A stretch of DNA of 64,000 bases, from NCBI RefSeq assembly GCF_054482595.1, contig NZ_CM137008.1, one strand, 5' to 3'. Both the position numbers and the translations under genes were made by a program. Positions 3,349-50,328 of the stretch are shown here, in pieces. Position 1 is the stretch's first letter; the number at the start of each line of letters is the position of its first letter. The notes below the pieces were generated by a model that worked only from the letters and a program-made list of their open reading frames with translations, ran no database searches and had not been told where the DNA came from.

Positions 3349-4365
3349 ATGGCCGTTAACTTACTGAAAAAGAACTCACTCGCGCTGGTCGCTTCTCTGC
3401 TGCTGGCGGGCCATGTACAGGCAACGGAACTGCTGAACAGTTCTTATGACGTCTCCCGCGAGCTGTTTGCCGCCCTGAACCCGCCGTTTGAACAGCAATG
3501 GGCCAAAGATAACGGCGGCGACAAACTGACGATAAAACAATCTCATGCCGGGTCATCAAAACAGGCGCTGGCAATTTTGCAGGGCTTAAAAGCCGACGTT
3601 GTCACTTATAACCAGGTGACCGACGTACAAATTCTGCACGATAAAGGCAAGCTTATCCCGGCGGACTGGCAGTCGCGCCTGCCGAATAATAGCTCGCCGT
3701 TCTACTCCACCATGGGCTTCCTGGTGCGTAAGGGCAACCCGAAGAATATCCACGACTGGAACGACCTGGTGCGCTCCGACGTGAAACTGATTTTCCCGAA
3801 CCCGAAAACGTCGGGTAACGCGCGTTATACCTATCTGGCGGCATGGGGCGCAGCGGATAAAGCTGACGGTGGCGACAAAGCCAAAACCGAACAGTTTATG
3901 ACCCAGTTCCTGAAAAACGTTGAAGTGTTCGATACTGGCGGTCGTGGCGCGACCACCACTTTTGCCGAGCGCGGCCTGGGCGATGTGCTGATCAGCTTCG
4001 AGTCGGAAGTGAACAACATCCGCAAACAGTATGAAGCGCAGGGCTTTGAAGTGGTGATTCCGAAAACCAACATTCTGGCGGAATTCCCGGTGGCGTGGGT
4101 CGATAAAAACGTGCAGGCCAACGGTACGGAAAAAGCAGCAAAAGCCTACCTGAACTGGCTCTACAGCCCGCAGGCGCAAACCATCATCACCGACTATTAC
4201 TACCGCGTGAATAACCCGGAAGTCATGGACAAACTGAAAGATAAATTCCCGCAGACCGAGCTGTTCCGCGTGGAAGACAAATTTGGCTCCTGGCCGGAAG
4301 TGATGAAAACCCACTTCACCAGCGGCGGCGAGTTAGACAAGCTGTTAGCGGCGGGGCGTAATTAA
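3349..4365 (+). CDS. cysP: Thiosulfate/sulfate-binding periplasmic protein
   Basis: 338 aa with signal peptide; first gene of cysPUWA(M) cluster. Confidence 0.95.
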
Positions 4366-7160: not shown

Positions 7161-7181
7161 TAGGTTGAGTGAATGTTAAAC

Positions 7182-7214
7182 GCCCGGAGGCGCTTCCCGC
7201 GATCCGGGCTTTTT
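7182..7214 (+). terminator. Terminator-like hairpin in cysA-cysM intergenic region
   Basis: gcccgga ... tccgggc stem followed by ttttt. Confidence 0.35.
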
Positions 7215-7237
7215 AATGGCAAGGTTTGTAACCTGTA

Positions 7238-7270
7238 GGCCTGATAAGACGCGCAAGCGTCGCATCAGGC
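7238..7270. repeat. REP (repetitive extragenic palindromic) element
   Basis: ggcctgataagacgcgcaagcgtcgcatcaggc, a typical E. coli REP palindrome; a near-identical copy at 29203..29234. Confidence 0.8.
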
Positions 7271-7293
7271 AACACCACGTATGGACAGAGATC

Positions 7294-8205
7294 GTGAGTA
7301 CATTAGAACAAACAATAGGCAATACGCCTCTGGTGAAGTTGCAGCGAATGGGGCCGAATAACGGCAGTGAAGTGTGGTTAAAACTGGAAGGCAATAACCC
7401 GGCCGGTTCGGTGAAAGATCGTGCGGCGCTTTCGATGATCGTCGAGGCGGAAAAGCGCGGGGAAATTAAACCGGGTGATGTGTTAATCGAAGCCACCAGT
7501 GGTAACACCGGCATTGCGCTGGCAATGATTGCCGCGCTTAAAGGCTATCGCATGAAATTGCTGATGCCCGACAACATGAGCCAGGAACGCCGTGCGGCGA
7601 TGCGTGCTTATGGTGCGGAACTGATTCTTGTCACCAAAGAGCAGGGCATGGAAGGTGCGCGCGATCTGGCGCTGGAGATGGCGAATCGTGGCGAAGGAAA
7701 GCTGCTCGATCAGTTCAATAATCCCGATAACCCTTATGCGCATTACACCACCACCGGGCCGGAAATCTGGCAGCAAACCGGCGGGCGCATCACTCATTTT
7801 GTCTCCAGCATGGGGACGACCGGCACTATCACCGGCGTTTCACGCTTTATGCGCGAACAATCCAAACCGGTAACGATTGTCGGCCTACAGCCGGAAGAGG
7901 GCAGCAGCATTCCCGGCATTCGCCGCTGGCCTGCGGAGTATATGCCGGGGATTTTCAACGCTTCGCTGGTGGATGAGGTGCTGGATATTCATCAGCGCGA
8001 TGCGGAAAACACCATGCGCGAACTGGCGGTGCGGGAAGGAATATTCTGTGGCGTCAGCTCCGGCGGCGCGGTTGCCGGAGCACTGCGGGTGGCAAAAGCT
8101 AACCCTGACGCGGTGGTGGTGGCGATCATCTGCGATCGTGGCGATCGCTACCTTTCTACCGGGGTGTTTGGGGAAGAGCATTTTAGCCAGGGGGCGGGGA
8201 TTTAA
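7294..8205 (+). CDS. cysM: Cysteine synthase B (O-acetylserine sulfhydrylase B)
   Basis: 303 aa from GTG at 7294 (VSTLEQTIGNTPLVKL...), PLP-dependent fold; ORF-track extension across the REP rejected. Confidence 0.92.
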   Translation: MSTLEQTIGNTPLVKLQRMGPNNGSEVWLKLEGNNPAGSVKDRAALSMIVEAEKRGEIKPGDVLIEATSGNTGIALAMIAALKGYRMKLLMPDNMSQERRAAMRAYGAELILVTKEQGMEGARDLALEMANRGEGKLLDQFNNPDNPYAHYTTTGPEIWQQTGGRITHFVSSMGTTGTITGVSRFMREQSKPVTIVGLQPEEGSSIPGIRRWPAEYMPGIFNASLVDEVLDIHQRDAENTMRELAVREGIFCGVSSGGAVAGALRVAKANPDAVVVAIICDRGDRYLSTGVFGEEHFSQGAGI

Positions 8206-8207
8206 GA

Positions 8208-8576
8208 TTATTGCGCAGGCACTGTTTTATCCGTCTGCGCAATTAACGCATGTAAAAAAGGCTGTGCATTCTCATCGCTCTTACCGGGCATCTTCACGAT
8301 ATACGGCTTCCCGGTAATCGATGATGACGAAGCAACCTTATCAATAAACTGCTCGGCAGTGTTAATGCGGTTACGGGTATTGCCGAGCTTCAGACGCAGA
8401 TGAGAAACCGCTTCATCGCAGGTATGTTCATCACCGTTGCGCACAAATATCAAATCCTTTTTCTGTGCTAATCCCTCCAGCATGGCGTTGATGCGGGCTT
8501 CTTCATGGGCAGTTAACTTCGCGTAAGCGGGGAGTGTCATTAGTAGTGTAATGACCAGACAAATGATTTTCTTCAT
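8208..8576 (-). CDS. yfeK: Secreted/lipoprotein-like protein YfeK (DUF5329-type)
   Basis: 122-aa ORF with signal peptide, matches YfeK as recalled; divergent from pdxK; its stop lies 2 nt from the cysM stop. Confidence 0.8.
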
Positions 8577-8601: not shown

Positions 8602-8667
<66 letters not shown>

Positions 8668-9532: not shown

Positions 9533-9560
9533 AAAAATGGCGCCGATGGGCGCCATTTTT
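9533..9560. terminator. Bidirectional intrinsic terminator between convergent pdxK and crr
   Basis: aaaaaaatggcgcc-gatg-ggcgccattttt perfect hairpin flanked by A and T runs. Confidence 0.8.
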
Positions 9561-9574
9561 CACTGCGGCAAGAA

Positions 9575-17770: not shown

Positions 17771-17989
17771 ATGGAAAAAGAGCAGCTGATTGAAATAGCC
17801 AATACGATAATGCCGTTTGGCAAATACAAAGGGCGTCGCTTAATCGACCTGCCGGAGGAGTATCTGCTGTGGTTTGCCCGCAAAGATGAGTTTCCGGCAG
17901 GGAAGCTCGGTGAGCTAATGCAAATCACGCTGCTGATTAAAACCGAGGGGCTGACGCAACTGGTCCAGCCCCTGAAGCGTCCGCTTTAA
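17771..17989 (+). CDS. ypeB: Small DUF3820-family protein YpeB
   Basis: 72 aa from ATG at 17771, 1 nt after ligA stop: MEKEQLIEIANTIMPFGKYKGRRLIDLPEEYLLWFARKDEFP... Confidence 0.8.
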   Translation: MEKEQLIEIANTIMPFGKYKGRRLIDLPEEYLLWFARKDEFPAGKLGELMQITLLIKTEGLTQLVQPLKRPL

Positions 17990-19073: not shown

Positions 19074-20000
19074 ATGAATTATTCTTTAAAACAATTAAAG
19101 GTTTTCGTCACAGTAGCGCAGGAGAAAAGTTTTAGTCGTGCAGGAGAGCGTATCGGCCTGAGCCAGTCGGCAGTAAGTCACAGTGTGAAGGAGCTGGAAA
19201 ATCATACTGGTGTTCGCCTGCTGGACAGAACCACGCGTGAAGTGGTGCTTACAGATGCAGGGCAGCAGTTGGCTTTGCGTCTTGAGCGACTGCTGGATGA
19301 ACTTAACAGCACGTTGCGCGATACCGGGCGTATGGGGCAACAACTGAGCGGAAAAGTTCGGGTCGCTGCCAGCCAGACCATTTCCGCGCATCTTATTCCG
19401 CAATGCATTGCTGAAAGCCATCGCCGCTATCCAGATATTCAGTTTGTCCTGCACGATCGTCCGCAGCAGTGGGTGATGGAAAGTATTCGCCAGGGAGATG
19501 TCGACTTTGGCATCGTCATCGATCCAGGCCCAGTGGGCGATCTGCAATGTGAAGCGATTCTTTCCGAGCCTTTCTTTCTGCTTTGCCATCGGGATAGCGC
19601 TTTGGCCGCGGAAGATTATGTACCCTGGCAGGCATTACAGGGAGCGAAATTGGTGTTGCAGGATTACGCGTCAGGCAGCCGACCGCTGATTGACGCAGCG
19701 CTGGCGCGCAATGGTATTCAGGCGAATATTGTGCAGGAGATTGGACATCCGGCGACGCTATTCCCGATGGTAGCCGCAGGCATCGGCATCAGTATTCTTC
19801 CCGCACTGGCGCTACCATTGCCTGAAGGTAGCCCGCTGGTGGTAAAGCGCATTACGCCGGTTGTTGAACGCCAGTTGATGCTGGTGCGCAGGAAGAACCG
19901 TTCACTTTCCACCGCCGCTGAAGCGTTATGGGACGTGGTACGAGACCAGGGCAATGCGCTAATGGCTGGGCGGGAAGGGGATCCGTTGTATCAGATATAG
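19074..20000 (+). CDS. yfeR: LysR-family transcriptional regulator
   Basis: 308 aa; N-terminal HTH ([32 protein letters not shown]); divergent from yfeH. Confidence 0.9.
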
Positions 20001-38597: not shown

Positions 38598-38599
38598 CG

Positions 38600-48633: not shown

Positions 48634-50328
48634 ATGTCAGATCAACTTCAAATGACAGATGGTATGCATATCATCGTTGAAGCATTAAAACAGAATAATA
48701 TTGACACTATTTATGGTGTTGTAGGTATTCCTGTGACGGATATGGCGCGCCATGCCCAGGCGGAAGGCATTCGTTATATTGGTTTTCGTCATGAGCAGTC
48801 GGCAGGCTATGCCGCTGCGGCAAGCGGTTTTCTTACCCAAAAACCAGGGATCTGCCTGACAGTGTCTGCGCCAGGATTCCTCAATGGTTTGACCGCATTG
48901 GCCAACGCAACGGTAAATGGTTTTCCGATGATCATGATTAGCGGCTCCAGCGACCGCGCGATCGTCGACCTACAGCAAGGTGATTATGAAGAGCTGGACC
49001 AAATGAATGCGGCAAAACCGTATGCCAAAGCAGCATTTCGCGTTAATCAGCCGCAGGATCTTGGCATTGCATTGGCACGCGCTATCCGGGTCTCAGTATC
49101 GGGTCGCCCTGGCGGAGTTTATCTTGATTTGCCAGCAAATGTCCTGGCCGCGACGATGGAAAAAGACGAAGCGTTAACCACGATTGTAAAAGTTGAAAAT
49201 CCGTCGCCAGCATTATTGCCATGCCCGAAGTCAGTCACTAGCGCAATTTCGCTTTTAGCAAAAGCTGAACGGCCATTAATTATCCTTGGCAAAGGCGCGG
49301 CGTATTCACAAGCTGACGAACAGCTTCGTGAATTTATTGAAAGTGCCCAGATTCCATTCCTGCCAATGTCTATGGCGAAAGGGATCCTCGAAGATACGCA
49401 TCCACTTTCTGCGGCAGCTGCGCGTTCGTTTGCCCTGGCAAATGCTGACGTTGTCATGCTTGTTGGTGCACGACTGAATTGGTTACTGGCACACGGTAAA
49501 AAAGGATGGGCGGCAGATACACAGTTTATTCAACTGGATATTGAACCGCAGGAAATTGACAGCAACCGCCCCATTGCTGTGCCAGTCGTTGGCGATATTG
49601 CATCCAGTATGCAAGGTATGCTGGCAGAACTGAAACAAAACACATTTACGACTCCACTGGTATGGCGCGATATTTTAAATATCCACAAGCAGCAAAATGC
49701 ACAAAAAATGCATGAAAAATTGAGTACAGATACCCAACCATTAAATTACTTTAATGCATTGAGTGCTGTGCGCGATGTATTGCGTGAGAACCAGGATATT
49801 TATTTAGTTAATGAAGGGGCAAATACCCTGGATAATGCACGAAATATTATTGATATGTATAAACCACGTCGTCGTCTGGATTGTGGCACCTGGGGTGTCA
49901 TGGGCATCGGTATGGGCTATGCCATCGGTGCTAGCGTGACTTCTGGTTCTCCGGTTGTCGCCATTGAAGGTGATAGTGCTTTTGGTTTCAGTGGGATGGA
50001 AATTGAAACGATTTGTCGATATAACCTGCCGGTGACAATCGTTATTTTTAATAATGGCGGCATCTACAGAGGAGACGGTGTTGATCTCAGTGGCGCTGGT
50101 GCACCATCACCAACGGATCTGTTGCACCATGCAAGGTATGACAAATTAATGGATGCGTTTCGTGGCGTTGGCTATAACGTCACCACGACAGATGAACTTC
50201 GTCATGCTTTAACCACCGGTATTCAGTCGCGCAAACCGACCATTATTAACGTGGTCATCGACCCTGCAGCAGGAACTGAAAGTGGCCATATTACCAAACT
50301 GAACCCAAAACAAGTCGCTGGTAATTAA
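48634..50328 (+). CDS. oxc: Oxalyl-CoA decarboxylase (ThDP-dependent)
   Basis: 564 aa; ThDP-binding motif GDSAFGFSGMEIETICRYNLP; matches Oxc (YfdU). Confidence 0.95.
   Translation: MSDQLQMTDGMHIIVEALKQNNIDTIYGVVGIPVTDMARHAQAEGIRYIGFRHEQSAGYAAAASGFLTQKPGICLTVSAPGFLNGLTALANATVNGFPMIMISGSSDRAIVDLQQGDYEELDQMNAAKPYAKAAFRVNQPQDLGIALARAIRVSVSGRPGGVYLDLPANVLAATMEKDEALTTIVKVENPSPALLPCPKSVTSAISLLAKAERPLIILGKGAAYSQADEQLREFIESAQIPFLPMSMAKGILEDTHPLSAAAARSFALANADVVMLVGARLNWLLAHGKKGWAADTQFIQLDIEPQEIDSNRPIAVPVVGDIASSMQGMLAELKQNTFTTPLVWRDILNIHKQQNAQKMHEKLSTDTQPLNYFNALSAVRDVLRENQDIYLVNEGANTLDNARNIIDMYKPRRRLDCGTWGVMGIGMGYAIGASVTSGSPVVAIEGDSAFGFSGMEIETICRYNLPVTIVIFNNGGIYRGDGVDLSGAGAPSPTDLLHHARYDKLMDAFRGVGYNVTTTDELRHALTTGIQSRKPTIINVVIDPAAGTESGHITKLNPKQVAGN

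Follow-up and report, generated by a model that had tools for sequence, protein, structure and literature searches.

In E. coli K-12 the genes at this locus run cysM-yfeS-yfeK-pdxK (b2421-b2418), whereas in the 64,000-nt stretch of DNA analyzed here (the window) cysM and yfeK meet tail to tail and yfeS is missing. This raises the question of whether the compact junction is the scar left by the loss of yfeS, as a first-pass annotation of the window had proposed, or the unoccupied form of a site that has been filled in K-12. A second question is how two transcripts that converge on so short a spacer come to an end.

Structure of the cysM/yfeK junction

The cysM gene, which encodes cysteine synthase B and is the last gene of cysPUWAM, occupies 7294..8205 on the plus strand according to the ORF list and the RefSeq annotation of E. 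coli XH990. Direct reading and the ORF list place its GTG start at 7294 and its TAA stop at 8203..8205, and its product shares 99% amino-acid identity with K-12 CysM. The yfeK gene (8208..8576, minus strand; ORF list and RefSeq annotation) encodes a signal-peptide-like DUF5329 protein of 122 aa, and its TAA stop is read as TTA at 8208..8210 on the plus strand. The two stop codons are separated by a 2-nt spacer, GA (8206..8207, direct reading), and the sequence around 8195-8215 is ...GGGGCGGGGATTTAA GA TTATTGCGCAGGCAC.... E. coli XH990 is identical to the window at 49,995 of the first 50,000 positions, and its RefSeq annotation gives the same coordinates for both genes. The convergent arrangement with stops 2 nt apart, as described in the first-pass annotation, is therefore confirmed by direct reading, the ORFs and the XH990 annotation. 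The absence of yfeS relative to K-12 was likewise borne out, since a tblastn search with K-12 YfeS against all 64 kb of the window returned no yfeS (best E = 2.3).

We then considered the C-terminus of YfeK, which had been flagged for comparison in case it was a fusion product. The last sense codon of yfeK is CAA (Gln; 8211..8213, minus strand), as read by eye against K-12 and from the junction strings, and the protein ends in ..TDKTVPAQ*. The Pfam DUF5329 domain spans residues 24-115 (E = 1e-31), and the C-terminal tail, which differs among genera, lies outside it. The ..TVPAQ* ending proved to be the common allele and the K-12 ending ..TVPAEGN* the altered one, indicating that the C-terminus in the window is native and not a fusion.

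The yfeS-bearing allele of K-12

The MG1655 locus has the same flanking genes as the window, in the same order and orientation, with the same CysM ending (..SQGAGI*), flanks about 98% identical and a sigmaE-type promoter motif upstream of yfeK. Unlike the window, it carries an extra 955 nt from stop to stop, made up of a REP/BIME pair and yfeS: cysM is followed by 188 nt with two REPs, then by yfeS, 32 nt and yfeK. K-12 yfeS (735 nt, 244 aa, with an N-terminal WGR domain) thus sits exactly here, between yfeK and cysM, as the first-pass annotation had stated, and not elsewhere alongside a 2-nt spacing. At the position of window 8211..8213, K-12 has about 960 nt instead, reading ATAGCAT...REP/BIME...yfeS...GCGGATTAATTTCCTTC, and its YfeK has 124 aa and ends in ..PAEGN*, compared with 122 aa and ..PAQ* in the window. 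The extra segment is bordered on both sides by an 8-bp direct repeat, GGATTAAT (positions 2007-2014 and 2959-2966 of the K-12 locus, L001). Beyond the right-hand GGATTA copy K-12 reads ATTTCCTTC, not TTG, and the match to the empty site fails. A MAFFT alignment of the window with K-12 and B misplaced the gap, and these cassette boundaries were read by hand. No transposase, integrase or tRNA was found at the junction site.

The composition and history of yfeS conflict with those of its neighbors. Its GC content is 39%, compared with 56.5% for cysM and 46% for yfeK. Between K-12 and a Pseudocitrobacter MAG, DNA identity was 95.9% for yfeS, 89.6% for cysM and 80.5% for yfeK; this yfeS record comes from a MAG that may be chimeric, with flanks that are clearly non-E. 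coli. Since yfeS is more alike in these two genomes than its flanks are, it has the appearance of acquired DNA. The gene differs by 2.7% between K-12 and B and by 4.1% between K-12 and the Pseudocitrobacter MAG. K-12 and B showed no differences over about 1.8 kb rightwards of mid-yfeK (through pdxK and crr), whereas leftwards, through yfeS, cysM and cysA, they diverged by 2-5%. This step in identity, near L001 position 3200 inside yfeK, indicates a recombination breakpoint and is the signature of an imported tract. Taken together, the low GC content, the cross-genus identity above that of the flanks and the recombination tract make yfeS look like an acquired newcomer. K-12 and B also differ by a 16-nt indel in the cysM-yfeS spacer.

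Searches for yfeS beyond the chromosome found it on no phage and, among plasmids, returned just one paralogue of about 70% identity and distant WGR matches. The paralogue is an unannotated ORF at 3366-4067 of the 50-kb E. coli plasmid NZ_CP098226.1, with about 70% identity to YfeS across 96% of its length. Fusobacterium replicons carry full-length YfeS homologues of about 40% identity. With no phage carrier and a single plasmid paralogue, allelic exchange would be the most likely route by which yfeS spread.

Distribution of the two alleles in E. coli

An 85-nt probe spanning both stops detected the contiguous junction in 4029 of 5426 complete E. coli genomes (74%), and yfeS DNA was present in 1387 of the same 5426. 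Together the two classes make up 5416 of the 5425 genomes with this locus and are thus essentially complementary. The contiguous junction occurs in phylogroups B2 (the type strain ATCC 11775, Nissle 1917 and ST131), E (O157:H7) and B1 (O104:H4). The spacer GA recurs in E. coli ATCC 11775, in O157:H7 and in the divergent Escherichia SCPM-O-B-8794 (L005), while Pseudocitrobacter faecalis has GT; strain FCI29 has an extra G, giving the spacer GGA and a 3-nt gap. An alignment of these junctions (A2) showed that GGGATTTAAG(A/T)TTATTGCGC(A/G)GGCAC is kept in the E. coli phylogroups, the divergent Escherichia and P. faecalis. In O157:H7 Z852, yfeK is annotated as a frameshifted pseudogene; a run of six A is shortened to five near its 3' end (equivalent to window 8253-8258), and the 2-nt junction is unchanged.

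The junction in other Enterobacteriaceae

A YfeK scan based on exact peptide words, with one genome per species, returned 16 loci, in a sample that left out E. fergusonii, Salmonella and most Citrobacter, Klebsiella and Enterobacter. The results showed that yfeS is missing from the site in 11 of the 12 non-E. coli loci with both flanks, the exception being one Pseudocitrobacter MAG, where the gap is 941 nt and the cassette has the K-12 boundaries. In the divergent Escherichia labelled E. coli SCPM-O-B-8794 and in P. faecalis, the gap is 2 nt and YfeK ends in ..VPAQ*, as in the window. Gaps in seven other Enterobacteriaceae genomes ranged from -12 to 99 nt. The gap is 1 nt in Enterobacteriaceae UBA5654, 31-32 nt in Citrobacter amalonaticus and Superficieibacter sp., and 57 and 99 nt in Entomohabitans and Intestinirhabdus, respectively. 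In Escherichia sp. E1V33 the two genes overlap (gap -12 nt, L004:1417-1428), which shows that the junction is continually remodelled by small indels. YfeK of E1V33 ends in ..TVPSNP*, and its cysM stop is TGA.

In other genomes this point is occupied by other cargo. In Klebsiella spallanzanii and Superficieibacter electus the gaps are 426 and 516 nt, respectively, and contain a SnoaL-like ORF. This SnoaL-like/DUF4440 ORF (135-140 aa; L008:4398-4805 and L013:4473-4895) ends in a 4-nt overlap with the stop of the convergent cysM, which thus again abuts a convergent gene. E. albertii NBRC 107761 has a gap of 1819 nt (L010:4331-6149) with 34.5% GC and two unrelated ORFs, both co-oriented with cysM; one (280 aa) has no Pfam match and the other (175 aa) has a weak match to DKNYY. 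Enterobacter sp. ENT03 has another gene order, with cysM next to pdxK in the same orientation and yfeK divergent from cysM on its upstream side; the convergent junction is therefore missing from that genome. A reading of the cargo as a defence island was tried and rejected, as PADLOC matched neither YfeK nor any of the cargo proteins (YfeS, the SnoaL-like ORF and the two E. albertii ORFs).

Origin of the compact and the yfeS-bearing alleles

If yfeS were ancestral, as in K-12, and had been deleted in the lineage of the window, a fusion-like junction would have been left behind. The position of K-12 yfeS exactly at this point, the 8-bp repeats flanking the K-12 segment, which could mediate a deletion, and the different YfeK C-termini of the two alleles all agree with such a loss. 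However, the product of such an event can be predicted. Collapse of the GGATTAAT repeats would give TAAGGATTAATTTCC, with YfeK ending in ..PAEGN* and a 3-nt gap; the full collapsed site, with yfeS gone, would read TTTAAGGATTAATTTCCTTCCGCAGG. The junction observed in the window is TAAGATTATTGCG (in longer form, TAAGATTATTGCGC...), with YfeK ending in ..PAQ*. A synthetic 120-nt version of the collapsed allele had no full-length match at ≥95% in the 5426 E. coli genomes; all full-length matches were the ordinary empty junction (113-114 nt, ≤94.2%). Direct-repeat-mediated deletion was therefore rejected, since the predicted allele differs from the window and was found in 0 of 5426 genomes, and the window is no deletion derivative of a K-12-like allele. 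The observed junction is moreover the majority form and is near-identical across phylogroups and P. faecalis, which excludes independent deletions and requires that any single deletion predate the split of the genera. The composition of yfeS and its cross-genus identity are also typical of acquired DNA. An ancestral yfeS lost by deletion is thus largely refuted, and we regard it as highly improbable.

The same comparisons give no support to the description of the site as a deletion junction. It is the majority E. coli state, it is common to phylogroups B2, E and B1, the divergent Escherichia and P. faecalis, other genera have tiny gaps, and it is not derivable from the K-12 repeats. Three features would mark a deletion, namely an ancestral gene-bearing state, a junction derivable from it and a minority distribution, and none of them was found. 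An empty site should instead be conserved in sequence across lineages and outgroups and should, where occupied, hold cargo whose GC content and history conflict with those of the flanks, and both were observed. These results indicate that the window very probably carries the unoccupied, ancestral form of the cysM/yfeK tail-to-tail junction and that K-12 carries an insertion. This polarity follows from parsimony, applied to 15 loci from about 10 genera, and not from formal ancestral-state reconstruction.

From this we infer insertion rather than deletion, with the following course of events. Convergent cysM and yfeK would have abutted, 2 nt apart or down to overlapping, since before the split of Escherichia and Pseudocitrobacter. 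The REP/BIME pair and yfeS, together a cassette of about 0.95 kb with low GC content, would then have been inserted just inside the end of yfeK in what is now a minority of E. coli (K-12, B and their relatives) and in at least one Pseudocitrobacter. In yfeK, Glu-Gly-Asn would have taken the place of the final Gln codon, and yfeS would have come under sigmaE control as part of the yfeK operon. Homologous recombination via the conserved flanks would then have disseminated the filled allele. As the right-hand end, past the GGATTA copy, does not have the form of a clean insertion, the original target site, which was not found, probably lay in another lineage.

The occurrence of both alleles in Escherichia and Pseudocitrobacter, each with the same boundaries, counts against this reading, as both forms could be old. 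They might represent a long-lived polymorphism of two ancient forms recombining among Enterobacteriaceae, in which case neither would be derived on the time-scale of E. coli and no polarity could be assigned. The divergence of yfeS between K-12 and B, which nearly reaches that between K-12 and the Pseudocitrobacter MAG, and the recombination breakpoint inside yfeK are consistent with such a polymorphism, whereas the small gaps without yfeS in more distant genera, the low GC content of yfeS and its identity above that of the flanks point to a later arrival of the gene. We consider an ancient polymorphism unlikely; it differs from insertion into an ancestral compact junction mainly in the timing of events.

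The presence of different cargo at the junction in other genera is as expected of a permissive insertion site. We consider it much more likely that the junction is a recurrent hotspot for small-cargo insertion across Enterobacteriaceae than that it is a bidirectional terminator, a reading taken up below. As at known sites of accessory-gene insertion, empty and filled alleles occur at a fixed point, the cargo is low in GC and varies (yfeS, the SnoaL-like ORF, the two AT-rich E. albertii ORFs), and the cassette is bounded by a short direct repeat. Unlike at such sites, there is no integrase, transposase, tRNA or defence match here, and the cargo amounts to one small gene and not to an island. 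In contrast to the cargo of mobile elements, yfeS, which is essentially absent from plasmids and phages, probably spread by allelic recombination.

The cysM/yfeK junction without yfeS is ordinary, and nothing about it departs from known biology. For this locus, the reference state of E. coli is not that of K-12, and yfeS is an accessory gene of roughly a quarter of complete genomes. As the compact junction is the norm, annotators should flag neither a deletion nor a fusion. Studies of a sigmaE "yfeKS operon" and of yfeS phenotypes, such as the boric-acid sensitivity of Keio mutants (PMC11502571), hold only for strains that carry yfeS.

Transcription across the junction

A pattern search identified a sigmaE-type promoter-like motif, GAAACTT-N16-TCAAA, upstream of yfeK (8610..8637, minus strand), the single match in the window against 0.03 expected. 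This putative promoter, assigned to sigmaE from the motif and published reports, would drive transcription toward cysM. The motif fits the reported membership of yfeK(S) in the sigmaE regulon, as an operon in K-12 (PMC2685091, PMC11502571, PMC3326320).

The first-pass annotation had held that the junction leaves no room for a terminator and implies convergent read-through. This is true of the 2-nt spacer; however, an 11-bp hairpin lies inside yfeK at 8210..8243, formed by the inverted repeat ATTGCGCAGGC (8210-8220) and GTCTGCGCAAT (8233-8243) with a 12-nt loop. It lies 5 nt past the cysM stop and overlaps the yfeK stop and last 11 codons. The predicted folding energy was -16.3 kcal/mol on the plus strand (z -2.1) and -13.5 kcal/mol on the minus strand (z -1.8), and 7/200 and 9/200 shuffles, respectively, folded as well. 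No U-tract follows it on either strand, the sequence being UUAACGCAUG on the plus and UAAUCUUAAAUC on the minus strand. A consensus scan of 8100-8300 on both strands found no intrinsic terminator and did not flag the hairpin. With its 12-nt loop, the missing U-tract and the empty scan, an intrinsic (Rho-independent) terminator at the junction was rejected.

A conserved or covarying RNA structure at the junction found no support. The hairpin is conserved in the empty-site alleles, and the only variant, in SCPM-O-B-8794, has an uncompensated mismatch; because the arms code for IAQ and PAQ, their conservation cannot be separated from coding constraint. Rfam returned nothing at the junction (E up to 1). 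The true bidirectional terminator of pdxK/crr, 1.3 kb away (9533-9574; -22.9 kcal/mol, z -4.65), looks quite different from this hairpin. In K-12, the BIME downstream of cysM folds at -50.7 kcal/mol (z -4.96) and separates the convergent transcripts with a strong structure that the window does not have.

It is plausible, judging from the DNA, that convergent read-through makes the 3' ends of the cysM and yfeK transcripts overlap. Lacking an intergenic terminator, the cysPUWAM transcript and the sigmaE-driven yfeK transcript would each end within the opposing coding region, by the action of Rho, by collision of RNA polymerases or at the weak hairpin at 8210-8243. In E. coli, Rho keeps antisense read-through in check. 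Published maps of E. coli RNA 3' ends are from K-12, which carries the yfeS allele.

In one further reading, the hairpin would be a bidirectional terminator or pause site that needs no U-tract, and collisions between CysB-driven cysPUWAM and sigmaE-driven yfeK transcription would set both 3' ends. According to Ju et al. 2019, as cited in bioRxiv 10.1101/2022.10.23.513370, hundreds of E. coli convergent pairs end at shared stem-loops through RNA polymerase collisions, a termination that needs neither Rho nor a classical terminator sequence. Those terminators resemble the present case in the convergent pair, the single stem-loop possible in both transcripts and the lack of a classical U-tract; they differ in that the stem-loop here lies inside the yfeK coding sequence, is of modest stability (z about -2) and shows no covariation. 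We hold a terminator role for the hairpin to be unlikely. If true, it would couple sulfur assimilation to envelope stress in most E. coli, and the yfeS/BIME insertion would have uncoupled cys and sigmaE transcription in K-12. Strains with and without the BIME between cysM and yfeK could provide a small natural experiment on the termination of convergent transcripts.

Other convergent pairs in the window

Among the 10 convergent gene pairs in the first 50 kb of the window, 4 are tight, with ≤2 nt between stops or an overlap. Besides cysM/yfeK, these are ypeB/yfeH (4-nt overlap, 17986-17989), yfeR and a flxA-like gene (10-nt overlap, 19991-20000) and ptsP(fryA)/ypdC (2 nt apart, 38598-38599). 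The remaining six have gaps of 42-140 nt, mostly with obvious hairpin terminators. As four of ten pairs are equally tight, the tightness of cysM/yfeK is unremarkable, and an inference of read-through would apply equally elsewhere.

Upstream of cysM, the cysA-cysM spacer (7161-7293) contains a hairpin, gcccgga (7182-7188) and tccgggc (7203-7209), followed by TTTTT. It also contains a REP-like palindrome (7239-7271) that matches naRNA4 (RF02564) below the gathering score. These elements could possibly represent an internal attenuator or a REP within the cysPUWAM operon.
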